Below are positions 3,284 through 47,364 of a stretch of 64,000 bases of DNA, piece by piece. The first letter of the stretch is position 1. Each line of letters begins with the position of its first letter. Source of the stretch: a virus; the IMG/VR virus record IMGVR_UViG_3300009430_000001, positions 32,598 to 96,597 of that record. The stretch is one strand, 5' to 3'. The translations under genes and the position numbers were made by a program. The notes under the pieces are model-generated. The model was not told the DNA's origin, made no database searches, and saw only the letters and a list, made by a program, of their open reading frames with translations.

Positions 3284-4204
3284 TCAGAAGCCGGCGTCGT
3301 CAAGCACGGTGTCCGCGGTGGCATCCACGGTGGACAGCTGTTGTCCGGTGGTGTCGTAGTAAGCTTGCTCGCCTGCCACGGCAGCGGAACCAGCCGGCAT
3401 CAGGCCATAGCCCTGGAACGCACGCTTGATGCGCTTGACTGTTTCCAGCAGCTCTTCGATCGTGCTGGGTCCGTTGTACCAGCTGTTGTCGGAGAGCTTC
3501 ATCCAGCTTTTGCGATCAGGAGTGGGCACGGAGATCTCGAGGAATCGGGCGCGCTTGCCATTCCGCAGATCGATCCTGCACACGTCAAACAGCTGGCGGC
3601 TGTCGTCTTCCGACTGGCAGATCTCCGCCAGCGCGCCAAGGAAGCTGCGCACCGGGCCGGTGACGCCTGTGCTGCCATCGGGGCGATAGCTGACGGCATT
3701 GAAGTTCAGTTCGATGGCACGACCCTCGGTGTCGCTCATCAGGAAGCGCAGCCGATAGTTGAGCGCATAGGATGCATTCTCATCGGCGGGAGTCACCAGA
3801 AGAAGCATGTCCCGGGCAAATCCGATGATCTTGGATGTTCCGCTGTCTTCGTTGGTGGTTCCACCATCATCGGATACCGTGAAATTCACGGGCTTGTTTG
3901 CAGTCGCAGGTGTGACGGGCTGGAAAGGATTCTTGTACGCGCGGATCGGGGTGTGACCGACGACAGCTGCATCGTCCGGCGGCAGCTGGATCACCGCGGC
4001 TTCGGTCGGGGCCAGGGCGGAGGTCTCCTCGACTTGCTCGGCGACTTGCTCGGTGGCTTGCTCGACAGCTTGCTCAGCGACTTCGGGGATGCTCACGATC
4101 TCAGTTTGAACAGTGGTTTCAGTGGACGGCTCGAGCACTTCAGGGCTGAGTTTGGCGGGCTCGCGGGTACGGGTGGCGCGGGTACGGGTGGAATTCGTAG
4201 CCAT
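3284..4204 (-). CDS. hypothetical protein with acidic low-complexity N-terminus
   Basis: ATG 4204 (MATNSTRTR); EQAVEQATEQVAEQ repeats; 306 aa. Confidence 0.7.
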   Translation of the reverse strand: MATNSTRTRATRTREPAKLSPEVLEPSTETTVQTEIVSIPEVAEQAVEQATEQVAEQVEETSALAPTEAAVIQLPPDDAAVVGHTPIRAYKNPFQPVTPATANKPVNFTVSDDGGTTNEDSGTSKIIGFARDMLLLVTPADENASYALNYRLRFLMSDTEGRAIELNFNAVSYRPDGSTGVTGPVRSFLGALAEICQSEDDSRQLFDVCRIDLRNGKRARFLEISVPTPDRKSWMKLSDNSWYNGPSTIEELLETVKRIKRAFQGYGLMPAGSAAVAGEQAYYDTTGQQLSTVDATADTVLDDAGF

Positions 4205-4256
4205 TGGAAACAGATGAAGCAGATGAACGCGCTGCCTGTCACGCAGCACAAAGAAA

Positions 4257-4281
4257 AAAGGCCCCCGTGGAGGGAGCCTTT
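4257..4281 (-). repeat. hairpin repeat (plus strand AAAGGCCCCCGTGGAGGG), terminator-like copy
   Basis: Stem-loop followed by a U-tract on the minus strand; member of the ~19-copy family. Confidence 0.8.
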
Positions 4282-4301
4282 GAGTGGGAGGGAAAATCAA
4301 A

Positions 4302-4318
4302 ACTTAGACACAACGCGG
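4302..4318 (+). repeat. asymmetric motif copy 2
   Basis: ACTTAGACACAACGCGG, intergenic. Confidence 0.85.
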
Positions 4319-4328
4319 AGCGCAGGTC

Positions 4329-4946
4329 TCAGTCTTTGAATCTGTAGTGGTATGGCTTGTAGTGACTGGGATACATCGCATTGATGGGCCCGAGACGTGC
4401 ATTCTGTGCCTCAAGCTGCTCGAGGTCACGGCATGCACGTTCCATGGCGCTGTCACTGTCGAGCTTGGCGAGTAGTGGCAAGCAGGGAATGTAGTGCGTT
4501 GCGCCTTGGAATTTCTTGTTGCCATGGCAAATGATCGTGATGCCGCTGGTCAGCGTGTGATAAGCGCCGGTGCGCATGATCAAGCCGCTAGGCATATGGA
4601 TCATGAACAGCGGTTTGCAGATGCGCGTATTGTGGCTGGCATCATCGGGAAAACCTTCAGGCTCAGGAAGCCGTGGGTCGTCATGTGCCACGAGCTCGAT
4701 GCGATAGTCGCGTTGAGCATTGAACTCATCGAGTGGATCGTAGAGATCGCCGCCCCAGCCGACAGCGATCTTGGTCATGTCGTTAGTGTCAAGCTGTTGC
4801 TTGAGGTCTTGCCGGCGATCTAGTTCGATCGCAATGCGACCGAGGAAGTCGCGGTGGTTGTTGGGGAGTCGGGGTTCGATGTAGCTGTTGAGCATGAACT
4901 GCTTGGTTTTCTTGTCGGTGATACGTGATCCACGGACGTTGTTCAC
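4329..4946 (-). CDS. hypothetical protein
   Basis: GTG 4946 overlaps the TGA of the upstream gene (GTGA coupling). Confidence 0.6.
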   Translation of the reverse strand: MNNVRGSRITDKKTKQFMLNSYIEPRLPNNHRDFLGRIAIELDRRQDLKQQLDTNDMTKIAVGWGGDLYDPLDEFNAQRDYRIELVAHDDPRLPEPEGFPDDASHNTRICKPLFMIHMPSGLIMRTGAYHTLTSGITIICHGNKKFQGATHYIPCLPLLAKLDSDSAMERACRDLEQLEAQNARLGPINAMYPSHYKPYHYRFKD

Positions 4947-5491
4947 GTTTCCTCCTGCTTCTTGCGGTCTTCGCTCTCTTGGTGCTTCCATGTGCCCCAC
5001 TTCTCGATGTACTCTGTGGCGGTTGGCACGCGCTTCAGCTTGTGCACTTTGCGCCACTGCTCTTCAGTGGTGTCATGGAACTTGGCAGGGCCGCTGATTT
5101 CGTAAAGCTCGAGATCGAGGGTATCTATGCCTGCTTGAATCATCTGCGTCCACGTATTTGTGGGAGTCCAGGCTTGATCGTCTTCGCTCAGGTTGCGTTG
5201 CTGTATCTTGAGCTCTTCGACGTAACCCGTGCGAAGCACGGCCAAGGCCGCTCGCATAATGACGTGAATAACTAGCGCTGGCTGATGTCTGCTGATGCAC
5301 TCACGATAGGTGAAGTTTGTATAATTAAGTTTGTTCTCACAGCGTCTGATTATCGTGATCAGCTCTTTCACTGTGATGATGTCGTGGCGCCAGGCCACGT
5401 GCAGCAGTGCGTTGGCAACGTCTTGGTGAAGCTCAAGCAAATTGTTGTGGGCTTTGCCGTTTTTTTCAATCAGTCGGTTGTAGATGCTCAT
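4943..5491 (-). CDS. hypothetical protein
   Basis: 182 aa ATG ORF in the minus-strand operon. Confidence 0.65.
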   Translation of the reverse strand: MSIYNRLIEKNGKAHNNLLELHQDVANALLHVAWRHDIITVKELITIIRRCENKLNYTNFTYRECISRHQPALVIHVIMRAALAVLRTGYVEELKIQQRNLSEDDQAWTPTNTWTQMIQAGIDTLDLELYEISGPAKFHDTTEEQWRKVHKLKRVPTATEYIEKWGTWKHQESEDRKKQEET

Positions 5492-8965: not shown

Positions 8966-9714
8966 GAGGCGGATTCGTCGTTGGTGTACTCCGATGTCCA
9001 ATACAGGAAGTCGTCACGCTTCTGCACGGGCATGATGATGAAGCGCAGAGACACGTCGCCCCAGGGCTTTTTGGTCTTGGACTTCATCTTTTCCCAGCTT
9101 TCTGAATTTATGCCGGAGCGGATCTCCATGGGCATGATGCTGGAGCTGAAGGCGAACTGTGGATGCTTGGCCTCCAGCTTGATGATGATCTCATTGATTA
9201 CCTTCATGTAGATCGGATCCCAGAGAATGGGCCGCAAAGCGTTCATCGAGTAGTGACAGGGGAAGATGTTATCGAATGCTTGTACGGTTGGGAATGCGTA
9301 AGTCGCTGGGATCGGCTCATGCGCCAGGCGCGCGTTCTCAAGGAAGATCGTACTGATCTTGCCTTCGTCGTTGAATGCGAGAACAGCGGCGTCATTGGAC
9401 ATCCACTTTTCGAAGACCTTGAAGTGGATCAGGAGCTCGGGGATCTCCTGGAAATCACCGGGAGTGTGATCACTGAGGCCTGCTCTCAGCGCAACATGGC
9501 CGTTGGTCGCTTCGATGTAGTAGCACTCGAGCGTGGCATCTGAGCGGATGCGCACGAATTCGAGTGCTTCTATGCCCAGGGGTTTGGCGAGCTTGGCGAT
9601 TTGTGAAGCGGCCCAAAGCAGGGCGGTGGGCAGGCGCAGCGTACCGCCGGCCGCGGAAGGAGTGTCAGGCACGGTGTGAATGACGGTGGAACCGTAGCTG
9701 ATGATGAGAATCAT
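8962..9714 (-). CDS. possible DNA polymerase III beta-clamp-like protein
   Basis: YIEATNGHVALR resembles the ATDGHRL motif of sliding-clamp domains. Confidence 0.4.
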   Translation of the reverse strand: MILIISYGSTVIHTVPDTPSAAGGTLRLPTALLWAASQIAKLAKPLGIEALEFVRIRSDATLECYYIEATNGHVALRAGLSDHTPGDFQEIPELLIHFKVFEKWMSNDAAVLAFNDEGKISTIFLENARLAHEPIPATYAFPTVQAFDNIFPCHYSMNALRPILWDPIYMKVINEIIIKLEAKHPQFAFSSSIMPMEIRSGINSESWEKMKSKTKKPWGDVSLRFIIMPVQKRDDFLYWTSEYTNDESAS

Positions 9715-9923
9715 GGGTTTTCAAAAGTAAATTGCTTGGCAATTCCCGATTCGCCACACTCTATGCACTCGATGTAGCTGTTTTCGTTGAAGTTTAGGTC
9801 TCCTCCACACACGTCAGAGCCATTGTCATACATCAGCACGAGTGTGCTGACTTCAATGCGAAATGGCTCTTCGTTGCCGCACTTGGGGCAGCGTATGCCG
9901 GCAAGACAGTTGGTGTTGGTCAT
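9711..9923 (-). CDS. small zinc-ribbon protein
   Basis: CPKC...CIEC. Confidence 0.65.
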   Translation of the reverse strand: MTNTNCLAGIRCPKCGNEEPFRIEVSTLVLMYDNGSDVCGGDLNFNENSYIECIECGESGIAKQFTFENP

Positions 9924-10126
9924 GAGTGGTCTTCAACGGATTTAAGGAATTCGATCGTTCGAATTTTGGGCCATGTGGCCAGTGCTGTGAGCCTGGCGGT
10001 TTCTTGGTTGTCTCCGGCTACCCATACGCGATCACGCATGGGGCAGCCGAAGACATCTTCGATCAGGACGTCGAAGACGTAGTAGGTGGTGGTTTCAGGT
10101 TTCACGGGCAAGACGCTGGTGGGCAT
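9920..10126 (-). CDS. small hypothetical protein
   Basis: 68 aa, coupled ORF. Confidence 0.55.
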   Translation of the reverse strand: MPTSVLPVKPETTTYYVFDVLIEDVFGCPMRDRVWVAGDNQETARLTALATWPKIRTIEFLKSVEDHS

Positions 10127-10526
10127 AAAGCCTGTAGAATGGTTGAACGGATCTCAGGCCTCCTGCTTCTGAAATACGTTTGATAAGGCCAGAACCTCCT
10201 TTGTGCTTTTGTACTTCATGGATAGATGGGATCTCAAGCGGATAGATGTTGCAGGACTTGAGAAAGTCGTAGATTTCTTCGTAGAATCCAGTGGGATCAA
10301 GGTCTTTGTTGGGGCCGTGTCTGCCGCTGAGGTATTCTGCGGTTGGCATGTAATGCTTGGGCAGTAAATCAGGATGATGGCAGATGAGATAGAGGATCAG
10401 GGCGCAGTCGAGCTCCATGGATGGGCTGCGACGGTCGCGCTGGGCGGCCTCTTCCAGAGCCGTAATGAGATCGGCTGGTGCGGTCCAGTTGACGCGCGGC
10501 CGATTCCCGCGGTCGCCGGTGCTCAT
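10095..10526 (-). CDS. ribbon-helix-helix (Arc/CopG-like) DNA-binding protein
   Basis: N-terminus RPRVNWTAPADLITALEEAAQRDRRSPSMELDCAL fits the RHH pattern. Confidence 0.6.
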   Translation of the reverse strand: MSTGDRGNRPRVNWTAPADLITALEEAAQRDRRSPSMELDCALILYLICHHPDLLPKHYMPTAEYLSGRHGPNKDLDPTGFYEEIYDFLKSCNIYPLEIPSIHEVQKHKGGSGLIKRISEAGGLRSVQPFYRLYAHQRLARET

Positions 10527-10723
10527 TGCTTCTCCTCCGGCATCCAGGGATCGGCATCGGCGCGGGCTTCAGCTTCGGAATCGAAGGGCCCGCTCATCTC
10601 GCCGTCAGGCAGGCAGCTGGGAAAGCAGGCTTGCCAGTACCAGTCAATGTCGGAAAAGAGCGTGAATGTTTCGTAGGAGCCGAAGCTTTCACCGCTTTCG
10701 TTATGGAATTGGTAGAAGGTCAT
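10523..10723 (-). CDS. small phage protein
   Basis: WYWQACFPSCLPDGEMSGPFDSEAEA; ATGA coupling. Confidence 0.65.
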   Translation of the reverse strand: MTFYQFHNESGESFGSYETFTLFSDIDWYWQACFPSCLPDGEMSGPFDSEAEARADADPWMPEEKQ

Positions 10724-10959
10724 CGTTGCGATTGCCTCCAGCGCTGGGTTTCGCCGGGATTCTCTTCGTAGAGATGCCGCCATTCGTCGGATCCACTGAC
10801 GAGGTGTTCGTCAAGCAGAATGCGAAGCGCGCAGTCGAACGCTTCACTGGCGCTCAGCTCACGGCCGTTGGGTCCCTTGATCGGGAATGTTCGGCAGTAC
10901 CGCAAGCGGCGTGCGGCGTTGTAGAGCGAAGCGGTGGGATTGGGGGTGGATAGGGTCAT
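10720..10959 (-). CDS. small hypothetical protein
   Basis: 79 aa, coupled at both ends. Confidence 0.6.
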   Translation of the reverse strand: MTLSTPNPTASLYNAARRLRYCRTFPIKGPNGRELSASEAFDCALRILLDEHLVSGSDEWRHLYEENPGETQRWRQSQR

Positions 10960-11363
10960 GGCAGATAGCTCTGATAGCGGTTGGCGTTCCCGACGGCGTG
11001 CTTGAGGGCTGAGGCGAATGCCTCGGCGATGGGCTGGGGTACGTTGAGCTCGAAGATGTCAACTTCGCCTTTGTCTTCGAATATGGGTTCGTGGTGCGGG
11101 CTCAGCGGTGCGCGCCAGAGTTTTTCGCCTTGCATCCAGTAAGCAAAGCCTGTTGGCTTGTGTACCAGATACGATTGCGGATCGCGGCCGGTGCAGTCTT
11201 CGTCAGGGCAGTGGTTTTGGAATTGATGAAGTTGCTTGAGGGTGAGCTCGGTGTAGACGCGGCTGCAGTGGGGGCAGTGAAAGTAGCTGCCCTTCTTGTC
11301 CATTAAGGCTATGAATCGGCTGCCAAGACGAATGTCGTTTGGCGTGATGGCGGGTTCGCTCAT
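10956..11363 (-). CDS. zinc-finger-containing hypothetical protein
   Basis: CPHC...HCPDEDC; ATG 11363 or 11369. Confidence 0.55.
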   Translation of the reverse strand: MSEPAITPNDIRLGSRFIALMDKKGSYFHCPHCSRVYTELTLKQLHQFQNHCPDEDCTGRDPQSYLVHKPTGFAYWMQGEKLWRAPLSPHHEPIFEDKGEVDIFELNVPQPIAEAFASALKHAVGNANRYQSYLP

Positions 11364-11415
11364 GACCATGCAGTGGAGATTTCGCCGTAAGGGGCGGGGT
11401 GGTAGGTGGGGATAC

Positions 11416-11610
11416 TCACGGATTTTCTTTGGCGAGGTGTGAGCGCAAGTCGACGACGGCCCAACCGGCTTCGATGAATTCATCTCGAATCCGGTCGGCC
11501 TCTATGGAGTGACAGAGACTGCTGATTCGCTCAGAGTCGCCTTTGAACTCCATGAGTAGCGTGCAGTAGCGGCCCGTCGCGGTGGGCGGAATGATGATGA
11601 CTGTGTTCAT
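11416..11610 (-). CDS. small hypothetical protein
   Basis: 64 aa ATG ORF. Confidence 0.5.
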   Translation of the reverse strand: MNTVIIIPPTATGRYCTLLMEFKGDSERISSLCHSIEADRIRDEFIEAGWAVVDLRSHLAKENP

Positions 11611-11613
11611 GGC

Positions 11614-12054
11614 TTAGGTAGCAATGGATTCAGATCGGTTCGTTGCAGAGGCCCGAGTGGTCTTCGTAGATCGGCTCTTCGTTGTCTGCCGTCGGGTTGC
11701 CGGCCTCTTCGTCGCGCTCGGCGTCGATTTCGGCCCATTCGATCCAGATGTACGCCTGGATGTACGCGGTGCCTTCGGTGCGCTGGATTTCTGGGTTGTC
11801 CGGGACGCTGATGCAGCGTCCTTCGAGGGCTCGAGCTCGATTGATGAGCTCCTGGTCGCTGATGTCGCTGCGGATCTGGTTGGCCATTGGCGGGCGAGGC
11901 GGTCAGAGAGTCGATGAATGAAGCAGCCAAATGCGTATCTGGCTGCGATGGTGAAGGCGATGGCATGAGCCAGGCCGCGGGCCAGGGCCTCGAGCCGATG
12001 CTCGAGATCCCAGGTGCGGTAGGCTCGCCACGCCTCGAGGGGCGTGAGTTGCAT
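11614..12054 (-). CDS. hypothetical protein (C-terminal part overlaps 11630..11887)
   Basis: ATG 12054 (MQLTPLEAW) lies just after the upstream stop. Confidence 0.4.
   Translation of the reverse strand: MQLTPLEAWRAYRTWDLEHRLEALARGLAHAIAFTIAARYAFGCFIHRLSDRLARQWPTRSAATSATRSSSIELEPSKDAASASRTTQKSSAPKAPRTSRRTSGSNGPKSTPSATKRPATRRQTTKSRSTKTTRASATNRSESIAT
11630..11887 (-). CDS. small acidic phage protein
   Basis: GTAYIQAYIWIEW motif, acidic tail. Confidence 0.6.
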   Translation of the reverse strand: MANQIRSDISDQELINRARALEGRCISVPDNPEIQRTEGTAYIQAYIWIEWAEIDAERDEEAGNPTADNEEPIYEDHSGLCNEPI

Positions 12055-12059
12055 GGCGA

Positions 12060-12518
12060 TCAGATGAGGTTGAGCAGGGTGAACCAGGAGTCCGGGGCGT
12101 CCGGTTCTACGGAATCGCCGTCGGGATTTTCGATGACGGAATCGAGCGACCATTGGTCGAACTCAGCTGATGCTGGGATCGGCATCCATTGGCCTTTCCA
12201 GTACATGCCGAAGATGCGACCTGCTTCGGTTTTGAAGCAGGCCACATCGCCACTGGTGTGCAGTGGCCTGTTGGTTTCTGGATCACGAAGCCGGGGCTTG
12301 CCGGCTACGATGCGGCTGAGGCGAACAATCGGCTTCCCGGTGTTCGGGTTCCGTCGTCCGGTGGGGCGAATCGTGGGCTCGGGCTGGAATTGCTCGGCGT
12401 CGCCGTAAAGGTTGCGGTACTCGAGCATGAGTCTCTCGCCGATGGTGGGCGTGCGCTTGTCAAGAAGTTGCTGGATTTCTTTTGTCATTTCGTTGCTAGC
12501 TGTTTCTTTTGTGTTCAT
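12060..12518 (-). CDS. hypothetical protein
   Basis: 152 aa; C-terminal ENPDGDSVEPDAPDSW. Confidence 0.65.
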   Translation of the reverse strand: MNTKETASNEMTKEIQQLLDKRTPTIGERLMLEYRNLYGDAEQFQPEPTIRPTGRRNPNTGKPIVRLSRIVAGKPRLRDPETNRPLHTSGDVACFKTEAGRIFGMYWKGQWMPIPASAEFDQWSLDSVIENPDGDSVEPDAPDSWFTLLNLI

Positions 12519-12748
12519 TGGTCGTCTTTGAACAGCATATGAGCAGGAGGCTCTGGCTTTGTGCGCCAGAGCTTGCTGTGAGTGGCTTGATCGATCAAGC
12601 CAATCCTGTAGTGGCGGAGGATCCAGTTATCCCACAGCTCGCGAAGCTCGATTGTGGGCTTGAGACCGCGTTGCAAGAGAAACTCGAGATATTCCAGGAA
12701 GAATTTCTCGACTTCTTCAGCGGTCATCGGGGTGGAGTGAAGGTTCAA
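12515..12748 (-). CDS. small hypothetical protein
   Basis: Coupled ORF. Confidence 0.55.
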   Translation of the reverse strand: MNLHSTPMTAEEVEKFFLEYLEFLLQRGLKPTIELRELWDNWILRHYRIGLIDQATHSKLWRTKPEPPAHMLFKDDQ

Positions 12749-12999
12749 GGGTTTTGTCGCTCCAGTCGGATGGGTGATTCGGAGGAGAAGACGCAGCAGA
12801 TGACAGCGCCACAGCCGTTCTCGTCGTTCATGCGTTCCTCGATCTCTTTGGCGGTGTGGCCGTTCTCTTCGAGTAGGTGCCGAAGCATGCTTGTTGTTGC
12901 TTCGTCTTCGGTGCAGGAACCGAACACATGGCCGGTGTCTTCGTCGTCGAACAACACACGGCCCGTGACGGCCCAGTAGCGGATGGGCTTGTCAAACAT
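12745..12999 (-). CDS. small hypothetical protein
   Basis: ATG 12999 (MFDKPIRYWAVTGR), TAATG coupling. Confidence 0.6.
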   Translation of the reverse strand: MFDKPIRYWAVTGRVLFDDEDTGHVFGSCTEDEATTSMLRHLLEENGHTAKEIEERMNDENGCGAVICCVFSSESPIRLERQNP

Positions 13000-35928: not shown

Positions 35929-37491
35929 ATGGACGCTTCAGTAGGTCTCCTGGCACGCGCGAAAGCCCTGGCCAACGCGGACACGCGCATTGACATCGAG
36001 GTTCCGCCGGACATTCGTCTTGCGCGCACGGATTTCTCGGTGTTCTGCAAGGTGATGGGCAAGCCGAATGCTCGCCATCACGAGGAATGGGTGCACGAGT
36101 TCGTCACGGAGGAGACGAGCTCACGGTTGCTGCGCATTGCTGGAGCGGACACGGCGATCCTCGCGCCGCGAGGTTCGGCGAAGAGCACAGTGCTGGCGCT
36201 GTTCACGGCGTGGGCGATTGGTATTCACAGTGAAGCGCGCAAGCTGTTGCGGATTCTCTACATTAGCTATGCACTGGACATTGCGCGATCGAAGAGTTTT
36301 CAGATCAAGCAGATCATCAACTCGAAGCCCTTTCGCGAGGTCTTTCCCACGGTGCGACTTGGCAAGGACCGCACGTCGGATGAGCTCTGGGCGATCGACA
36401 TGGACTTCGCGGATGTTCAGGTTGATGCTGATGATCCGTACACGCTCTGCGCTTCTGGCCTTGGTGGTGCCATCGTGTCGCGCCGCGCGGATCTGATCGT
36501 GATTGATGACGCGATCAAGAGCGTGGACTCGATCTCGAATCCTGACATTCGCGCCAAGTTGATCACGAACTGGCAGCAGGTGGTGCGGCCGTGCTTGCTG
36601 GACGGTGGTCGCTGCATTGCGTTGGGCACGCGATTCAGCGCTGTTGACATCTACGGCACAACATTTGTGCAGAAGAATGGTTGGCGCGTCATCGTCGAGA
36701 AGGCGATTCTCACTGATGGTGATGGACTCGAGTGGTCGTACTGGCCTGAGATGTGGTCGTTGCCGTATCTGCAGAAGCTTCGTCGTGAGTCGCCGACAGA
36801 CTTCAGCTTTCAGTTTCAGAACCTGCCCGTTGCGCAGAGTGAGCTCAATTTCCCTGAAACGTGGTTCGTGCAGGAGCCGCTGAAGCGCGATAGCGGTGGT
36901 GCTGTTCAGCCTTATGACATGCTTTGTGTTGGCGTGGATCTCAGCAGTGGACTGAAGGAGCGCAATGATTACACGGTCATGCTGCTGGGCGGCATTCGCG
37001 ATGGCAATGTCGAGATGATCAGCTACCAGCGCATGCGGGCCATGGGCAATCTCGAGAAGCTCGACGCTTTGCTTGACATGCTGGAGGAGCAGGAGCTGGT
37101 GCGCGTTGAGGAGATCAACGGTGAGGAGCGCTGGCATCCGACTGATTGCCCGGTGACGGTGCTGTTTGAAGAGATCAGCTACCAGCAAAGCATTCGCGGT
37201 GACGCCAAGGCGATTCTTCACGACAAGCGCGGGCTCTACAACATCGTGCTGCGCGGAGTCAAGGGCTACCGTGGTGACAAGCTCAGTCGTTTTCGCGGCA
37301 CCTTGGGCCTGTTCCAGACGGGCAAGGTGACGTGGAATCCGCTCTACAACTGGGATGCTTTCAAAGACGAGATGGTGAACTTCGGTTACACCGATCACGA
37401 TGACTGCGTGGATGCCACGGTGCTCACGATCCGCGGCCTGGTCGGCCAGGGGGCTCTTCAGGCGCAGTGGGGCGACTGGGATCTCGAGTAG
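35929..37491 (+). CDS. terL: terminase large subunit
   Basis: Walker A APRGSAKST, Walker B LIVIDD, coupling GTR, nuclease VGVD...DYTV...HDDCVDA. Confidence 0.95.
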   Translation: MDASVGLLARAKALANADTRIDIEVPPDIRLARTDFSVFCKVMGKPNARHHEEWVHEFVTEETSSRLLRIAGADTAILAPRGSAKSTVLALFTAWAIGIHSEARKLLRILYISYALDIARSKSFQIKQIINSKPFREVFPTVRLGKDRTSDELWAIDMDFADVQVDADDPYTLCASGLGGAIVSRRADLIVIDDAIKSVDSISNPDIRAKLITNWQQVVRPCLLDGGRCIALGTRFSAVDIYGTTFVQKNGWRVIVEKAILTDGDGLEWSYWPEMWSLPYLQKLRRESPTDFSFQFQNLPVAQSELNFPETWFVQEPLKRDSGGAVQPYDMLCVGVDLSSGLKERNDYTVMLLGGIRDGNVEMISYQRMRAMGNLEKLDALLDMLEEQELVRVEEINGEERWHPTDCPVTVLFEEISYQQSIRGDAKAILHDKRGLYNIVLRGVKGYRGDKLSRFRGTLGLFQTGKVTWNPLYNWDAFKDEMVNFGYTDHDDCVDATVLTIRGLVGQGALQAQWGDWDLE

Positions 37492-37520: not shown

Positions 37521-39773
37521 ATGCAAGGTCCGGATCAGACGCGCTTTATGCAGATGCTGGAGGCAGCGCGCACGCGGCGCTCCTCTGATGATGCGGCATC
37601 GATGATCGTGCCGGCGCATCTGGCGCAGATGCGTCTGTTCATGACGCGGCAGGGCATCGAGTTTCACGCCAAGCAGGACAGCTACGGCCAACGGCGCGAT
37701 TTCATTGAGCGGGTCTCGGCATTCAACAAGCTACCTGGGCGCCTTGAGGGGATCATTGACTCGTTCCTGATTGATGGACGCGGGCTTTTCTATTTCAGGC
37801 CCAGCAAGGATTTGTACAGGGTTCACTATTTCCGCTACGATCAATATCGCGCCTACTACGATGATGATGGTGACCTGACGGAGCTGCAGATTATCTACAG
37901 CTTCAAGGTCAGGCCGCCGAAGGGCTTTGGTGCTTCCCTCGGTGCCGCGCAGGTTGGTCAGGATGTGCGTTTTGTCGGCGGACCCTCGAATGCGCAGCTG
38001 CGCTGGATCAAGCTCGAGGTGTACAAGGATCGCGTTGAGCAGACGATCTCTGAAGAGCGGCCGGAGTTCGATGGACTCGCCTCTGCGAAGAAGACGGTGA
38101 TGACCAACGCGCTCGGGTTCATCCCAGCGGTGGAGGTCTTCAACAACCGCAGCTTGGAGGAAGGCGAGGGCTATGGCGAGTTTGACTGGCTGGCATCGCA
38201 CATCCTTGAGCACGATCGCCTGGTGCGCTCGATCCGCAAGAACGTTCACTTCTTCGGCAATCCGACGCTGGTGAGCTCTCGCCCGCGTCATGACCTGATC
38301 GAGCCGGACGAAGATGGCGCACAGGCTCAACGGGCCACCGTGGCGAGCAACAGCGGCTTCAATGGCGTGCGAACGCGGAGCACGCGGGTCTCAGAACCCG
38401 GCTACGGAGGGGATGCACTGCGCGTGCCGCGCGTGATCGCCAACGTGGAAGCGGCGGATCGCGTCGGCTACATCAGCCCGGATGCGGTGAGCGGCGATCT
38501 GACGTCCTGGACGACGATGTGCCAGGAGATGATCCGCACGGCGCTCGGCGGGGTGGACGATCTGTCGATCAACAGTGGCGCCACGGCTTACGAGGTGAAG
38601 ACGCTGTACGGGCGTGTTTCCGCAACTGCAAAGCGCAAGTGCCGGGATCTGTTCGAGTACGGCTTGTGTCAGCTGTTTCAGCTGATGATCTTCCACGAGG
38701 AGACGTTGTTCCGCGAGTCGCTTGCCGTGGCGCTTGGCATCATCAAGCCGGAGCCGCCGCTGGAGGAAACCATTCCGCCTGAGCAGTTTCCGCAGATCAT
38801 GCAGATGTATCAGCAGTTGATGCAGCAGTGGAATGAAGCGGTTAACAGCGCGATCATGCAGATCAAGAAAACAGGCGAGGTGCCACCAGGCGTCATTGGC
38901 TTGATTCCCGACGGTGAGACGACGGTGTTGTATCGTTGGATGGGTGAAGTATTTCCGCAGTCTAACGAAGAAATTCTCCAAGCAAGCATAGTTGTCCGAA
39001 ATCTCCAAGAAATAGGCGTTGATTCATTGGAAGCACTCATGTGGCTTTTCCCCGAGAAGACGCCAGAGGAGCGGGCCGCGATGCTGGGTGGATACCCTTT
39101 CCGTGTGGCCGAGGCGACACAGCGTGCGATTGGGATCACGATCGACACCATCCGGGCGTTTTTCTCGACCCCCCATCCGCAGGAGCCGGACCTGCCTCTC
39201 GCCGCCGATCCTGCGCTGGATCTGACGCCCTACCTGTACCGAACACTTGCCCACCTTCGTACCGAGCTGACCTATGGAGGCCGCTATTCAGAGCGGGATG
39301 CAACCGTCGGCATCCCCGACACCCTCACAGATGCCGACCGCTTACGCGCCGCCCGCGGTCTCGCAACAGGCGCCGACCGGGCCGATGCCCAGCGGCGTGC
39401 CAGCTTCGCCGCAGCAGCTCGCTTCGTGGCAGGCTCCCGTCCAGGACAGCTGGGCTTCGATTCCGGCGCAATGGCAGCAGGCATTCCAGGGGACGCCGGC
39501 CGCCTTTCCTACTCCGAGTCCCCAGTTTTCGGCGCCGGCGGGACCCTCGCTTACGACCCAGCCGATTCCGCCCGCAACGGCGCTCAACTGGGCAGTGGCG
39601 CAGGCCCCGGCAGTGGCTTCGGCGAGCCCGACCTGGCAGCCCCAACCAACGCCGGCCTACTACCAGCAGCCCCAGGCCCAGCCCCAGTACCCGCAGGCCC
39701 AGCCGCAGGTGCAAATGGTGCCGGTGGCGGTGCCCCAAGCCGCAACGGCACCAAGCGGCGCCGGCGCGGTTGA
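37521..39773 (+). CDS. portal protein with long C-terminal extension
   Basis: Directly after terL; portal-like size and helical character; TACCCTG at 37495. Confidence 0.8.
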   Translation: MQGPDQTRFMQMLEAARTRRSSDDAASMIVPAHLAQMRLFMTRQGIEFHAKQDSYGQRRDFIERVSAFNKLPGRLEGIIDSFLIDGRGLFYFRPSKDLYRVHYFRYDQYRAYYDDDGDLTELQIIYSFKVRPPKGFGASLGAAQVGQDVRFVGGPSNAQLRWIKLEVYKDRVEQTISEERPEFDGLASAKKTVMTNALGFIPAVEVFNNRSLEEGEGYGEFDWLASHILEHDRLVRSIRKNVHFFGNPTLVSSRPRHDLIEPDEDGAQAQRATVASNSGFNGVRTRSTRVSEPGYGGDALRVPRVIANVEAADRVGYISPDAVSGDLTSWTTMCQEMIRTALGGVDDLSINSGATAYEVKTLYGRVSATAKRKCRDLFEYGLCQLFQLMIFHEETLFRESLAVALGIIKPEPPLEETIPPEQFPQIMQMYQQLMQQWNEAVNSAIMQIKKTGEVPPGVIGLIPDGETTVLYRWMGEVFPQSNEEILQASIVVRNLQEIGVDSLEALMWLFPEKTPEERAAMLGGYPFRVAEATQRAIGITIDTIRAFFSTPHPQEPDLPLAADPALDLTPYLYRTLAHLRTELTYGGRYSERDATVGIPDTLTDADRLRAARGLATGADRADAQRRASFAAAARFVAGSRPGQLGFDSGAMAAGIPGDAGRLSYSESPVFGAGGTLAYDPADSARNGAQLGSGAGPGSGFGEPDLAAPTNAGLLPAAPGPAPVPAGPAAGANGAGGGAPSRNGTKRRRRG

Positions 39774-42161: not shown

Positions 42162-42443
42162 GTGGTCGAGCGCTTTGCCGCCAGTCCTGAGGTCTACAGC
42201 GCTGTGCGGCGTCACCTGCAAAGTGACGGTGTTCCGCGTGAGGCCGCCAACCATCTCACATCCGAGATGGTCACGCACGGTGAAGACGTCGATTCATCGA
42301 TCGATCGCTTCCAGGAGCTGCATGCGCGCCTGCGGTCACAGGGCTTCGATGACGAGGCGGCGCAGGCTCTGGCCGTTGAGTCGATGGAGGGCCGCCAGCC
42401 CGAGCCGCGCGCCACGCTTCGCTACCAGATGACGGAGGCCTGA
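42162..42443 (+). CDS. small helical late protein
   Basis: GTG 28 nt after TACCCTG (42134); coupled to the lysozyme gene. Confidence 0.65.
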   Translation: MVERFAASPEVYSAVRRHLQSDGVPREAANHLTSEMVTHGEDVDSSIDRFQELHARLRSQGFDDEAAQALAVESMEGRQPEPRATLRYQMTEA

Positions 42444-43246
42444 TGGCGGACTTACTCGCGCGTTACCGGCAGCTCCTGCAGAACCCGAACGTTCGCCGGA
42501 CGCTGGACACGATCAGCTACGCGGAGGGCACCTCGGGCCCCGAGGGCTACCGCACGATGTTCGGTGGCGGCAAGTTCGACACTTCCGGCGGCTGGCGGCA
42601 CCCGGATCGAGTGGTGCACGGCGGCGGTTACAGCAGCGCCGCAGCCGGCAAGTATCAGTTCATGCCCGACACCTGGACCGGTGTCTCGCAACGTCTGGGC
42701 CTGAAGGACTTCAGCCCCGAAAGCCAGGATCTCGGCGCGCTGGCCAAGATCGAGGAGCGCGGCGTCAACCTCGAGGAGATCGCCAAGGGCGGCCTGAAGG
42801 CGGGCCACATCCACAAGCTGGCGCCGGAGTGGGCGTCATTGCCGACCGCCCAGGGCAAGAGCTACTACGGCCAGCCAGTGAAGGGGCTCGGTGAGCTCCA
42901 GAAGGTCTACGGCGGCCAGATCGGCGCCGGTGGTGGAGGCGGCAGCACTGCGAGCTCCGGTGGCGGCACGAGCAGCGGCAGCAGCAGCGGCACGAGCAGC
43001 AGCAGTAGCGGCGCGAGCGGTGGTGACGGCATCATCCAGCCGGAGCCGATCACGCCGCCCAAGCCGATCACGCCGGCCGCCATCCAGACGCCTGGTGCGA
43101 CGCTGATCAAGCCCGCCGCTTCGTTCGGCGTCGGGCCCAATGCCTGGGAGGGCGCGGGCGGCCAGGACGCCACGCCGTCGGGCAATCGCCTTGCCGGCTC
43201 GCGCTCGATCGTGCGCCAGCTGATGCAGATGCTCATGGGCGCCTGA
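42443..43246 (+). CDS. lambda-R-type (GH104) lysozyme/lytic transglycosylase with Ser/Gly linker and tail
   Basis: ISYAEGT..GY..MFGG..SAAAGKYQF..TW..DFSPESQD..EWASLP..YGQP. Confidence 0.9.
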   Translation: MADLLARYRQLLQNPNVRRTLDTISYAEGTSGPEGYRTMFGGGKFDTSGGWRHPDRVVHGGGYSSAAAGKYQFMPDTWTGVSQRLGLKDFSPESQDLGALAKIEERGVNLEEIAKGGLKAGHIHKLAPEWASLPTAQGKSYYGQPVKGLGELQKVYGGQIGAGGGGGSTASSGGGTSSGSSSGTSSSSSGASGGDGIIQPEPITPPKPITPAAIQTPGATLIKPAASFGVGPNAWEGAGGQDATPSGNRLAGSRSIVRQLMQMLMGA

Positions 43247-44078
43247 GTGGGATCGCCGGCGGCTCGAGCACCCGGGCCGTCCGTTCGCTGGCGATCAGCG
43301 GCGGCTCCTCCAGCCAGGCATCCGGATCTAGCTGGGGCACCACATGGCTCCGGCGCATCCGGCGCTCCTCCACCGGCGGCGGACCGGGCGGCGCGGTCCA
43401 GCCCGGGTCTTCATCGGTGATCCTCACCATCTCTTCGGTGTGGAACTGATCCCGCAAGCAGCGGGCCTGCGCCATCCACGTGTGGCTGATGGCGCGGATC
43501 AGCTTCGCCACGTCCTTTGGGCTGTAGCGGATCATTGGCCGTTCCTGGGCGCTGGGGCTGTGGCCGATGCGGCCGGTTGCTCCAGTGAGCGTGTAGATCC
43601 AGTCATGCACCAGCTGCGCGGATTCCCACGAGTAGCGATGCAGGTGCAGATGGCCGATCAATCCTCGTGATCGCTTCGACGGGAAGATGCGGCCGCGATC
43701 GGCCCACAGCGCACCGATGCCTTCAGCGCCGATCAATTCCAGCGCGCTGCTCGTGATTTGAAAGTTGCCCTCGGGGTACAGCAGCTTGTAGGCCGTCTCG
43801 AACCACTTGCTGCCCACGCGGATCCGCCAGTTCCCGGCTCCGGGCCTGGATTCTGGGTTGTAGCTGCCGACGAAGCTGGGCTCTGGCGCCTTCGGCATGA
43901 ACTGCTTCAGGCGCTTCCACTGGTAGAGCGCGTACTCCTCGTGCTCGAACGGGTGGTGGATGATCAGGCTGTAGGAGTTCCCGGGCCGGCCGAGCAGCCC
44001 ACGACCCAGGCAGTAGCCGATCACCAGGCGCGTCAGGGCCGCGGATTCTTCCCAGCTGAGCCTGGCAGGTGCGGGCAT
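43233..44078 (-). CDS. degenerate two-motif LAGLIDADG endonuclease-fold protein
   Basis: IGYCLGRG and ALWADRG align with the LLGDG and W.MDDG motifs of LAGLIDADG_2; also H...EY..Y, LYP.G...IT..L. Confidence 0.75.
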   Translation of the reverse strand: MPAPARLSWEESAALTRLVIGYCLGRGLLGRPGNSYSLIIHHPFEHEEYALYQWKRLKQFMPKAPEPSFVGSYNPESRPGAGNWRIRVGSKWFETAYKLLYPEGNFQITSSALELIGAEGIGALWADRGRIFPSKRSRGLIGHLHLHRYSWESAQLVHDWIYTLTGATGRIGHSPSAQERPMIRYSPKDVAKLIRAISHTWMAQARCLRDQFHTEEMVRITDEDPGWTAPPGPPPVEERRMRRSHVVPQLDPDAWLEEPPLIASERTARVLEPPAIPLRRP

Positions 44079-44101
44079 GGCTTGATGATGCTTTTTCCAA
44101 T

Positions 44102-44129
44102 CTTAGACACAATGGGGGTTCATACTCTG
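44102..44129 (+). promoter_or_regulatory. asymmetric motif copy 7 (variant) plus TACTCTG late box for the capsid operon
   Basis: CTTAGACACAATGGGG 44102-44117; TACTCTG 44123-44129. Confidence 0.65.
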
Positions 44130-44135
44130 ACCTCA

Positions 44136-44253
44136 GTTCCGCATGGAAGACCTGCACTTCGGTGCAGGGCACCTCGACAAGGGAAGCCGGTTTCGGCAGC
44201 AGACCCTCCGCAGCAATGCGCTGTCGGAGCTCGCGCTCTTGCGCAAGCGGAAC
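44136..44253 (+). ncRNA. structured 5' leader RNA of the capsid gene
   Basis: Closing stem GTTCCGC/GCGGAAC enclosing a cUUCGg hairpin, a GCAA tetraloop hairpin and further stems. Confidence 0.6.
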
Positions 44254-44280
44254 GTGTCGTTTACTCATGGAGGTCCACAC

Positions 44281-45946
44281 GTGTGGATTGATTCCGATAA
44301 ATGGATTGTCGCCCGCATCGGTAACGGTGCGGTGAAAACCGGGTGAATTCGGGGAAACCCAAACGTTAAGTCGTGGGCAATCCCGAGCCAAGCCAGCAAA
44401 GCGTTGCTGGAAGGTGTAGAGACTACGCGGTGGAAGACGCTTCTTCCGTAATACGCGATCAGCGCCCGGCATCCCACTGGGATGAAGATATAGTCCGTGC
44501 TGCGCGAAAGCGTAGAATTTCACGTTTCCAAAGATCCTGGGTGCGGAACTCTATCGTCCGCATCCCAGTTACATCTCCGAGCTCGCAATCGAGCCAGTTG
44601 TTGTACACGATTATTCCAGAATGCCGGGTCAAACGGTACAACTGGACCGGTACAATTACTGGGGGAATCCTGGAACGAAAGAGTCCAGAGAGCGTACTCC
44701 GGATCAAACAATCGGCACGGCTTCCGGCCGCAACATCACCAAGCAAAAGGTCTTGGTGACGTTGAAGGAATACTCGGGGCCTGCAGATCCGAACGATCCG
44801 TCACAGCCGAGCACGTTCAAAGTTTCAAGGCAAAACCTCATGACCGCGCAGCGATTGCTGCTCGACACGGGTAACCTGGGCGTGTTTCATCAGTCGATCG
44901 GCAGCCTCACGCTGCTCGATGACTACCGACGCTGGCGCGATCGCGTCTTTCTCAACGAATTGTACAAGTGCTACGCACGCGGCAAGGCGGATGAGGAGCG
45001 CGGTGGCTACTACTTCCCCGGCAAGCTGAGCGAAGCTGAGCTCGCCGCTCCTGGATACAACGTGTCCACCGCCGGAACGGCTGATTCGGCGAAGTTCTCC
45101 GTCAAGGAGGACCTGCTGACGGTCGTCACCGACATGCGTACCCGGAACGTGCCCACGTTCCAGGATGGGTACTACCGGTGCATCTGCGATCCGAACGCAA
45201 TGAAGCACCTCCGCCAGGACAGCGACTTTCGCGAGATCGCTCGCTACCCCGGCAACGGCATGATCAATCCGATGATGCCGATGATGCAGCCCAATGCCAT
45301 CAACTACCTCGGCAATGGGCCTGCTTACGGTCAAGCCGGCTTTGTCGCCGGTGCGCCGACCATGCCTGAACAACCACGGGCCCTCGCGGCGTGAGTCGCG
45401 TTGCAAACGGGGTGAATTGCTGGAACGCCTCCACCAATTGGCGAATCAGCAGCCAAGCCGGATCACAGTCCGGAAGGTTCAACGACTAGGTCCCGAGTGG
45501 CAACACGGTAATGGACCCACGAGTGCCCCGCTACTTGCTATGCTTTTATTCGCGAGTAGGTGAGATAGTCTGACCACGCCGGATGGGAAACGGCGTGAAC
45601 TGGAGGATAAAGAGCCTCCAGGGTAACACAGGTGAGTGGCTTCCTCTTCGAGGGCGTTCGCTGGTTCGAGTCCACCAACATCGCCTCGCACACCTACAAC
45701 GTGGCGATCCAGGGTGCCAAGGGTTTCACTGGCAATACCGCCAAACAGAACCCTGCCGCACTGATGATGTTTTTTGGACCACAAAGTATCGGGATCGGCA
45801 TCGGTGGCAATAACGCTCAAGTGGCCCTGAATTCAAATGACGATTTCTCAAGATTCGTGATTTTGATATGGCTACTCTACGCAGGTTGGGAGGTTTTGAA
45901 TATGGATTTTGTGACAATCGCTCACAGTTTCCTATACTCCATCTGA
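44281..45946 (+). CDS. major capsid protein, join(44281..44298,44525..45367,45635..45946), 390 aa spliced
   Basis: GGAGG RBS plus GTG; spliced read MWIDSD|FPKILGAELYRPHP...APTMP|SGFLFEGVRWFESTN is in frame; HK97-like P-domain elements (YRCICDP, GFLFEGVRW, MFFGPQSIG). Confidence 0.88.
44299..44524 (+). ncRNA. group I intron 1 (226 nt, no ORF)
   Basis: Exon ends in U with P1 CGAU/GUCG; P3 CCGGGTG/CGCCCGG; P7 GACTA(44421)/TAGTC(44491); AAGATATAGTCC; GNRA-capped P2 and P9; terminal G. Confidence 0.92.
45368..45634 (+). ncRNA. group I intron 2 (267 nt, no ORF)
   Basis: P1 GCCU/GGGC; P3 CGGGGTG/TGCCCCG; AATTGCTGGAA..AATCAGCAG; P7 GACTA(45484)/TAGTC(45566); terminal G; P10 CCAC/GTGG. Confidence 0.92.
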
Positions 45947-45984
45947 GCCATTTGGCTGTTTCGTTCACATGATCCTCATCTCCC

Positions 45985-46779
45985 ATGGCTGAGACTTACT
46001 CCAAGATCCTGCCGGGGAACTTTACGGTTCCCCTCAGCGCCTACGCGCTTCCCAACGCCGCCTTCACCGGACCCAAGGGCGATCCCAAGAATCGCCACCA
46101 GCAGGCCGTTCTGGTCATGCCGGGCATCCTCGCGGTGCACAAGGTCGGCGTCGCCCACATCACCGATGGCGGTGGCACCGATTTCGATGTCATCGTCCCT
46201 TCGCCTGACACCGAGCAGTCGCCTCACAAGGCGCGCGCCGACATCCAGGGCCTGTTCGTGCCGACCGGCGCGGTGCTGACCCGGGTTGGCCTGCGCATCA
46301 CCGGTGCCTCCGAGCAGCCGGGCTACTACAGCTCCGGCCGACGCGGCGTCGATCCGGTCTTCGACAAGACGACCGGCCTCGCGCTGCCCGAGGACTCCGG
46401 CCTGGTCGGCACCGCCGGTGATGCACTGATCCTGGCCACCGCCGGCACCGCCACTGGCGCCGGGGCGATCACCGCCACCGCGGCGCACACCTCCGATACC
46501 ACCTGCAAGCTCGGCACCGATGGCCGCATCTTCTCTCACGAGGAATCGGTCAACGCCAATCCGCTGCTCGGTGGCACCGCCACCGTCACCACGGCCGATC
46601 TCACCTTCAAACTGTTCAACACCGACGCGGCTGGCGGCCCCGGGACCGGCATCAAGTCCGACATCCTCGGTGGCGTCTACGTCATCGCGGAGGTCGTCTA
46701 CCTGATCGCTGATCGCGTCGCCGGCATGGGCGATGGGATCAAGCTTTCGGGAGGAGAGTACAGTGGCTTCGGTGGCTGA
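45985..46779 (+). CDS. putative capsid decoration/minor capsid protein
   Basis: Beta-rich Gly/Thr/Ala protein directly after the capsid gene and before a terminator; strong codon bias. Confidence 0.65.
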   Translation: MAETYSKILPGNFTVPLSAYALPNAAFTGPKGDPKNRHQQAVLVMPGILAVHKVGVAHITDGGGTDFDVIVPSPDTEQSPHKARADIQGLFVPTGAVLTRVGLRITGASEQPGYYSSGRRGVDPVFDKTTGLALPEDSGLVGTAGDALILATAGTATGAGAITATAAHTSDTTCKLGTDGRIFSHEESVNANPLLGGTATVTTADLTFKLFNTDAAGGPGTGIKSDILGGVYVIAEVVYLIADRVAGMGDGIKLSGGEYSGFGG

Positions 46780-46854
46780 TCTGTCGTAGAGTTCACGGGT
46801 CTCCACTCGGCAACGGCGCTGAGTGCGGGAATCCGGGTGAACTATGGGTTACTG

Positions 46855-46875
46855 GGGGCCTCCGGGCCCCTTTTT
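46855..46875 (+). terminator. intrinsic terminator
   Basis: GGGGCC-TCCG-GGCCCC-TTTTT. Confidence 0.85.
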
Positions 46876-46923
46876 CATGGCGGCTTGCATCGCGTACACT
46901 GAGCGTGCTATCACGCGCGCGCG

Positions 46924-47364
46924 ATGACTCAGGTTTACCAGGATCGCCGCACCGGCAAGCGCGTTCGCATTGTCGGTGGCATGAGCGACAAGGAAGATTT
47001 TGTTCTCGTTACCACGGACGGCCAGGCTCCCTTCTACTGCCAGGTCGATCAATTGATGAAGATTGATGAAGCTGGGGTTCCCGATTTCGCCAGCGTCGCC
47101 AGGCCTCGCATTGAAGAGGTCGAGGAGAAGGCGCCGGACCCCGTGATTCCGATCCCCGAGACGCGGCTCAATCTCAACGTCGCCACGCCGGAGGAGATCA
47201 GCAAGCGCATCCCCGGCGTCGGGTATCGCATCGCCAAGCGCATCGTCGATGCACGCCTGGCATTGCCGGGTGAGCGGTTCACGACGCTGGATCAGGTGAC
47301 CGCGGTCTCGAGCCGCGTCAACTGGGAAGAGGTGCAGCGCGCCAACCTGATGTTCATCGGTTGA
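46924..47364 (+). CDS. helix-hairpin-helix (ComEA-like) DNA-binding protein
   Basis: RLNLNVATPEEI..IPGVG..IAKRIV.AR...F..LDQV; TACACTG at 46895. Confidence 0.8.
   Translation: MTQVYQDRRTGKRVRIVGGMSDKEDFVLVTTDGQAPFYCQVDQLMKIDEAGVPDFASVARPRIEEVEEKAPDPVIPIPETRLNLNVATPEEISKRIPGVGYRIAKRIVDARLALPGERFTTLDQVTAVSSRVNWEEVQRANLMFIG

Follow-up and report, generated by a model that had tools for sequence, protein, structure and literature searches.

In this uncultured phage, the major capsid gene very probably gives a three-exon precursor RNA, from which two group I introns without open reading frames (ORFs) would be excised to leave the mRNA of a 390-aa protein. Both would come from a selfish pool of introns which has repeatedly invaded this family of capsid genes. 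The DNA studied here, a stretch of 64,000 nt which we call the window, corresponds to bases 32598-96597 of a 96,597-bp IMG/VR record, which has direct terminal repeats and is rated complete. In positions of the window, the parts of the gene are:

44281-44298, plus strand: exon 1, GTG TGG ATT GAT TCC GAT (M W I D S D), with the U of the 5' splice site as its last base
44299-44524, plus strand: intron 1, group I, 226 nt, no ORF
44525-45367, plus strand: exon 2, 281 codons of the major capsid protein
45368-45634, plus strand: intron 2, group I, 267 nt, no ORF
45635-45946, plus strand: exon 3, 103 codons and the TGA stop

The interrupted capsid gene

By its profile and model matches the gene is a predicted major capsid gene of the HK97-fold type. 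Exons 2 and 3 match colinearly phrog_1357 (major head protein), a profile of 356 positions: exon 2 covers its positions 61-239 (E 4.4e-13) and exon 3 its positions 249-343. No family in Pfam gave a match. A Foldseek search with the AlphaFold model of an 80%-identical homologue gave top matches which are all phage capsid proteins, with a probability of 0.95-1.0; the model is weak (pLDDT 57.7, TM about 0.3), so it has been used for the fold class only. For exon 2 there are 851 homologues, among which those of full length have 74-83% identity. Within the window the capsid exons and their homologues, used as queries, matched a single locus and no second capsid gene was seen. The following features are found in the same region:

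35929-37491: large terminase gene, near the capsid gene
37521-39773: gene of a 750-aa virion protein (phrog_20475, 'virion structural protein', head and packaging)
42443-43246: lysozyme-like gene
43233-44078, minus strand: LAGLIDADG_2-like gene, divergent and upstream of the capsid gene, with a weak Pfam match (E 2.5e-4)
44270-44274, plus strand: Shine-Dalgarno-like GGAGG, six nt 5' of the GTG start, as read from the sequence

The start codon of the capsid gene is also GTG or TTG in the relatives. The capsid leader (44060-44300) matched no known RNA family in Rfam at E up to 1, and a scan for promoters and terminators gave nothing informative. The spacer in the region of 44136-44253 has 214 nt in the window vs about 126 nt in intron-less relatives. 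The sole cultured relative of this phage is Synechococcus phage S-EIVl, which was reached by protein search only: a megablast comparison of positions 43000-47000 with GenBank phages gave 0 matches. Its capsid homologue has 65% identity over exon 2 and no intron. It lies in KJ410740.1 at 3983-5134, codes for 383 aa and also starts with GTG; in GenBank it is misannotated, since the record shows two other CDSs over it, one hypothetical on the minus strand and one truncated on the plus strand.

The two introns had been placed at 44299-44524 and 45368-45634 in an earlier note made from the sequence, the first of them after only six codons. These borders are upheld by alignments with homologues, both in protein and in DNA. 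When the introns are removed, 390 continuous codons and a stop are obtained, and the protein aligns without gaps across MWIDSD|FPKILGAELY and GAPTMP|SGFLFEGVR with 16 uninterrupted homologues (379-397 aa). In the DNA of six intron-less relatives the alignment begins at 44525, ends at 45366/7 and resumes at 45638: both inserts are thus precise insertions. Intron-less homologues therefore do align across the predicted junctions at both levels, a comparison which the earlier note had named as a check on its reading. Also as predicted there, the conceptual spliced product contains the junction peptides WIDSDFPK and TMPSGFLFEGVR; at the two junctions the joined exons read TCCGAT|TTTCCA and ATGCCT|AGTGGC. 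The unspliced frame stops at 44344-44346 when read from exon 1 and at 45392-45394 when read from exon 2; neither intron codes for an endonuclease, since 226 or 267 nt are too small for one. The expected fragmentation by ORF callers is found as well: the predicted protein P0001 (257 aa) corresponds to 44621-45394 and runs into intron 2. An alternative in-frame 5' splice site, after ATTGAT (44292), can be read in the sequence; it would have a weaker P1, and its product would be shorter by two residues and lack the conserved Ser-Asp.

The group I model of Rfam (RF00028, gathering score 50) recognizes both inserts. Intron 1 is matched at 44289-44516 with 72.8 bits (E 1.5e-16), intron 2 at 45313-45597 with 50.5 bits (E 7.3e-10), barely above the cut-off. 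The whole 96,597-bp genome has no further match to this model. For intron 2 the model misaligns P1 and P2 and begins too early, within exon 2 (45313); the borders of this intron are therefore those given by the alignments with homologues, not those of the model. Two independent assemblies (L084 and L085), which are 99.85% identical to the window, carry both introns: they show 8 and 13 differences from the window, 0 of them within the introns.

Ribozyme structure and predicted splicing

A U.G wobble in P1, the helices P3, P7 and P10 and a terminal G had been noticed in both introns, and all of them are confirmed base by base. The complete set of helices is:

Intron 1, P1: C44295-U44298 and A44299-A44300 with 44306-44311, wobble U44298.G44308
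Intron 1, P10: 44302-05 with 44527-30, UGGA/UCCA
Intron 1, P2: 44314-20/44325-31 (GUAA loop); P3: 44339-43/44465-69
Intron 1, P4: 44349-53/44382-86; P5: 44358-61/44374-77; P6 and P6a: 44387-44415
Intron 1, P7: 44421-25/44491-95; P7.1 and P7.1a: 44426-44457
Intron 1, P8: 44471-83; P9: 44500-15; terminal G: G44524
Intron 2, P1: 45364-68/45377-81, wobble U45367.G45378
Intron 2, P10: 45374-77 with 45636-39 of the 3' exon, CCAC/GUGG
Intron 2, P2: 45385-90/45395-400 (GUGA loop); P3: 45408-12/45526-30
Intron 2, P4: 45418-22/45447-51; P5: 45426-29/45440-43; P6a: 45458-62/45469-73
Intron 2, P7: 45484-88/45566-70; P7.1: 45489-93/45513-17; P8: 45531-38/45552-59
Intron 2, P9: 45575-81/45591-97; P9.1: 45600-06/45615-21; terminal G: G45634

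In both introns P2 is capped by a GNRA loop and P7 has the sequence GACUA/UAGUC; intron 2 also has a P9.1. P1 is short, with 6 pairs in intron 1 and 5 in intron 2, and P10 has 4 bp in each. The two introns have the core alone in common and are not copies of each other. An extra P7.1/P7.1a hairpin, backed by covariation, is found in both, after the 5' strand of P7 and before the 3' strand of P3, at 44426-44457 and 45489-45517. Such a hairpin is the mark of subgroup IA in the Michel-Westhof scheme, and IA is the usual type in phages. Both introns appear to be IA-like, an assignment made by reading this scheme.

Strong covariation in the two families points to selection on the fold of both introns. 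A thermodynamic fold of intron 1 recovers P2-P6a, P7.1, P8 and P9 with z = -4.3. That of intron 2 recovers most helices with z = -2.35, a modest gain in stability over shuffled sequence. For intron 1 we have compared 10 related introns, 80-86% identical over their alignable parts; P9 is misaligned and has not been counted. Both sides change in 27 of the 57 pairs and 93% of the cells are paired, a value which is reached by 0 of 500 shuffles, while slid controls have 26-41% of cells paired. P7 (GACUA/UAGUC) is invariant among the 10 relatives. The guide strand of P1 covaries with the exon: CGAU/GUCG is found in the window and in the related locus L096, UGAU/GUCA in L164. In the family of intron 2 (8 related introns) a de novo consensus fold gives P2-P9.1, with compensatory changes in 35 of its 53 pairs.

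We infer that both introns splice, that they do so independently of proteins, and that timing and yield may be affected, including a virion yield which would depend on double splicing. A guanosine would attack at the U.G pair of P1 in the first transesterification; the exons would then be ligated after the terminal G, guided by P10, to give the mRNA of the 390-aa protein. A ribosome which translates unspliced RNA would get through 21 codons and then meet a stop in intron 1, where the 5' strand of P3 ends; when reading exon 2 it would stop 8 codons into intron 2, in the loop of P2. The start codon is only 15 nt before the P1 strand, so an initiating ribosome should cover the 5' splice site; initiation and the formation of P1 would therefore compete.

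It is conceivable, though improbable, that these are true group I introns which require a protein helper in vivo. The candidate maturase would be the product of the LAGLIDADG-like gene at 43233-44078. It aligns with the LAGLIDADG ORFs encoded in the introns of related capsid genes; these retain LGDG and DDG, yet the product of 43233-44078 has Arg at the two positions of the catalytic Asp, its motifs being CLGRG and WADRG. Cleavage-dead LAGLIDADG proteins can act as maturases, as in the case of yeast bI3 and I-AniI, and the short P1 of both introns also speaks for some help. However, the gene is also kept beside intron-less capsid genes, in L005 (3014-3931, minus strand) and L007 (3084-4082, minus strand), with 40-46% identity, and no group I intron was found in these two records, which are 25-38% complete. 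A role as maturase or as driver of mobility is thus unlikely. The ribozyme cores are complete and have GNRA loops, so there is no sign of a structural defect. The protein looks like a domesticated, non-cutting relative of the capsid-intron endonucleases. We also considered collaborative homing, with this protein as a free-standing endonuclease acting on the site of intron 1, as F-CphI does for psbA; it was rejected, given the Arg at both catalytic positions and the presence of the gene beside intron-less capsid genes.

Still less probable is decay: the introns would be remnants unable to splice and the gene a capsid pseudogene, in a defective or misassembled genome. The marginal Rfam score of intron 2 could be read in this way. 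However, the three exons keep an intact frame, with 74-83% identity to homologues which look functional, and every core helix is intact in both introns. The three independent assemblies agree, and the genome is rated complete, with terminal repeats and no second capsid gene seen in the window. Finally, removal of the inserts by an intein, programmed frameshifting or translational bypass can practically be dismissed: only the interruption of the ORF favours it, while in-frame stops within 21 and 8 codons do not agree with the translated in-frame insert of an intein, and the inserts fit a ribozyme model, covary as RNA and have no protein-coding signal.

Introns in related capsid genes

The two self-splicing introns proposed for the window have many relatives. 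We scanned IMG/VR with the P3-P5 cores of both introns and then searched the matches with the capsid protein; many interrupted related capsid genes were found, which are 62-66% identical. Above the Rfam cut-off there are four introns in L094 (plus a fifth one with a partial match), two each in L096, L105 and L123 and one in L111; L105 and L123 have the same two introns. The junctions in L094, L096, L123, L113, L097, L126 and L103 were mapped by the best protein alignment. For each junction listed below from these loci, U at -1 and a final G in the intron occur together at exactly one of the top-scoring positions; the same mapping gave no resolved position for the junction of L111. Mapped in this way, putative group I introns are present at 10 or more positions in the relatives of the capsid gene in IMG/VR. 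The sites, numbered by codons of the capsid protein of the window, are:

Site 2.67: L094, L105 and L123, with an exon 1 of 8 nt
Site 4: L096, L142, L164, L134 and others, relatives of intron 1
Site 6: intron 1 of the window
Site 21.33: L123, 930 nt
Site about 36: about 290 nt in L094, L096 and L123; about 1 kb in some 15 loci
Site 47: L103
Site 48: about 250 nt in L094 and L096; about 900 nt in L134, L142 and L164
Site 107: L096, 976 nt
Site 144: L094
Site 287: intron 2 of the window; 1114 nt in L094

When the exons are joined by the U/G rule, intact ORFs of 371 aa are obtained after removal of five introns in L094, four in L096 and three in L123. The gene of L094 (IMGVR_UViG_3300025889_015705, capsid gene at 9393-12895, minus strand) has five introns and six exons; its first exon has 8 nt, TTGTTCGT, and a 35-nt exon is found between two introns.

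Part of the spread of introns in this family may have been driven by intron-encoded LAGLIDADG homing endonucleases. ORFs of the LAGLIDADG_2 or LAGLIDADG_3 type (E 1e-9 to 1e-14) are found in introns of the relatives at codons 21, 36, 47/48, 107 and 287. Examples of LAGLIDADG genes within introns are those at L113:1161-1916 and L094:9761-10693. The long versions of the introns have LAGLIDADG_2 ORFs in the sense strand. At codon 287, the exact site of intron 2, the related 1114-nt intron of L094 has a LAGLIDADG_3 ORF on the opposite strand, in the loop of P8.

The frequency of introns was estimated in a sample blind to them: 79 members of the family picked by a conserved exon motif. Large interruptions are found in 4 members, and at least ten have an element like intron 1 at their 5' end; from these counts roughly 15% carry at least one intron. 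Among the 80 best full-length capsid matches we found 0 with introns.

Relatives of intron 1 lie after codon 4 in L096 (2771-3114, minus strand), L142 (125-470), L164 (2931-3163, minus strand), L134 (2109-2343) and others. An intron of this type is thus found after codon 4 in the relatives vs codon 6 in the window, always after a GAU which matches the guide. Such a placement suggests that the intron has been retargeted by two codons, possibly through reverse splicing. An element like intron 1 is also present in L128, L138, L140, L199, L171 and L189; in these loci the first exon and start codon were not found and the upstream sequence does not read MF(I/V)D.

A broader picture, to which we give about equal weight for and against, is that group I introns from a diversifying pool would compete for the capsid gene (about 1.15 kb) of the S-EIVl-related lineage. 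They would move by reverse-splicing retargeting and endonuclease homing, and the introns without ORF could cheaply protect endonuclease target sites in co-infection.

These results have some practical consequences. Gene callers break the gene, and the database has only a 257-aa piece of the capsid protein of the window. Together with the misannotation in S-EIVl, this fragmentation means that capsid-based classification and proteomics of a widespread aquatic lineage will miss or mis-size their marker. Each subunit of the virion would depend on two ribozyme reactions, and the location of intron 1 within the footprint predicted for the initiating ribosome offers a natural system for interference between translation and splicing. 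The pattern of the family, with many sites, with and without LAGLIDADG genes, and with shifted related ribozymes, provides comparative material on the spread of group I introns; it also bears on whether introns matter in the competition of co-infecting phages. Of specialist interest are the hot-spot pattern, the placing of introns only 8-18 nt after the start of the coding region, and the two-codon shift of one type of intron.

Comparison with known systems

The sequences closest to intron 1 outside the capsid genes are introns of jumbo coliphages and the psbA intron of S-CBWM1, with 72-76% nucleotide identity over 120-190 nt; intron 1 belongs therefore to the same pool of phage introns. The S-CBWM1 intron is annotated; it is found in a different gene and carries a homing endonuclease. 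Cyanophage S-PM2 also has a group I intron in psbA. Those of the jumbo coliphages are in unannotated loci and not in the capsid gene. Three records of jumbo coliphage and Klebsiella phage, with genomes of about 350 kb (PQ471516.1 at 289104-289293, MT446416.1 and OU509535.1), contain stretches which have 72-74% identity with intron 1 over 170-190 nt and are probably unannotated group I introns. There is also a short match of the core of intron 1 to Staphylococcus phage Twort. The orf142 gene of Twort reportedly has three group I introns, for which self-splicing is said to have been shown: it resembles the window by having several introns of subgroup IA type in one phage gene, a gene which differs from the capsid gene. 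Dense intron loads have been reported in gut jumbo phages (PMC12880540).

The earlier note implied that introns in a capsid gene were a novelty, which was overstated: group I introns in capsid genes have been published for Tuc2009 and LittleE (PMC3706429, PMC2504315) and for crAss-like phages (PMC7886860). In the lactococcal phage Tuc2009 the major head protein gene has a group I intron (cited in PMC3706429, PMC2504315); as far as these citing papers describe it, there is a single intron, in a temperate siphovirus with a low-GC Gram-positive host. In the literature we found no paper which links S-EIV1-type phages to capsid introns.

The mycobacteriophage LittleE (Cluster J) has a group I intron in its major capsid gene (PMC3706429). 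As in the window, an intron of group I type interrupts the most highly expressed virion gene, exon 1 ends in U and the intron in G. A sister phage has a derivative with no ORF. The LittleE case also involves LAGLIDADG endonucleases, of which one is encoded on the opposite strand, a feature found in the relative L094 too. The two cases differ in that the single intron of LittleE measures about 820 nt and contains an endonuclease ORF, whereas the window has two without ORF, one of them six codons from the start. Furthermore, splicing in LittleE was shown by RT-PCR and N-terminal sequencing, while for the introns of the window it is predicted from the sequence.

In crAss-like phages of the Delta and Zeta groups the capsid gene has several group I introns and endonuclease ORFs; one such gene is in five fragments (PMC7886860). 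It is parallel to the five-intron gene of L094, and both derive from metagenomes. However, the phage order, the host and the capsid family differ from those of the window. The introns of crAss-like phages were recognized mainly through protein domains, whereas those described here are mostly small, have no ORF and have been mapped to the nucleotide by ribozyme models and covariation. Introns in capsid genes were thus known before; what is new is the picture of a whole family in which the capsid gene is a hot spot for introns.
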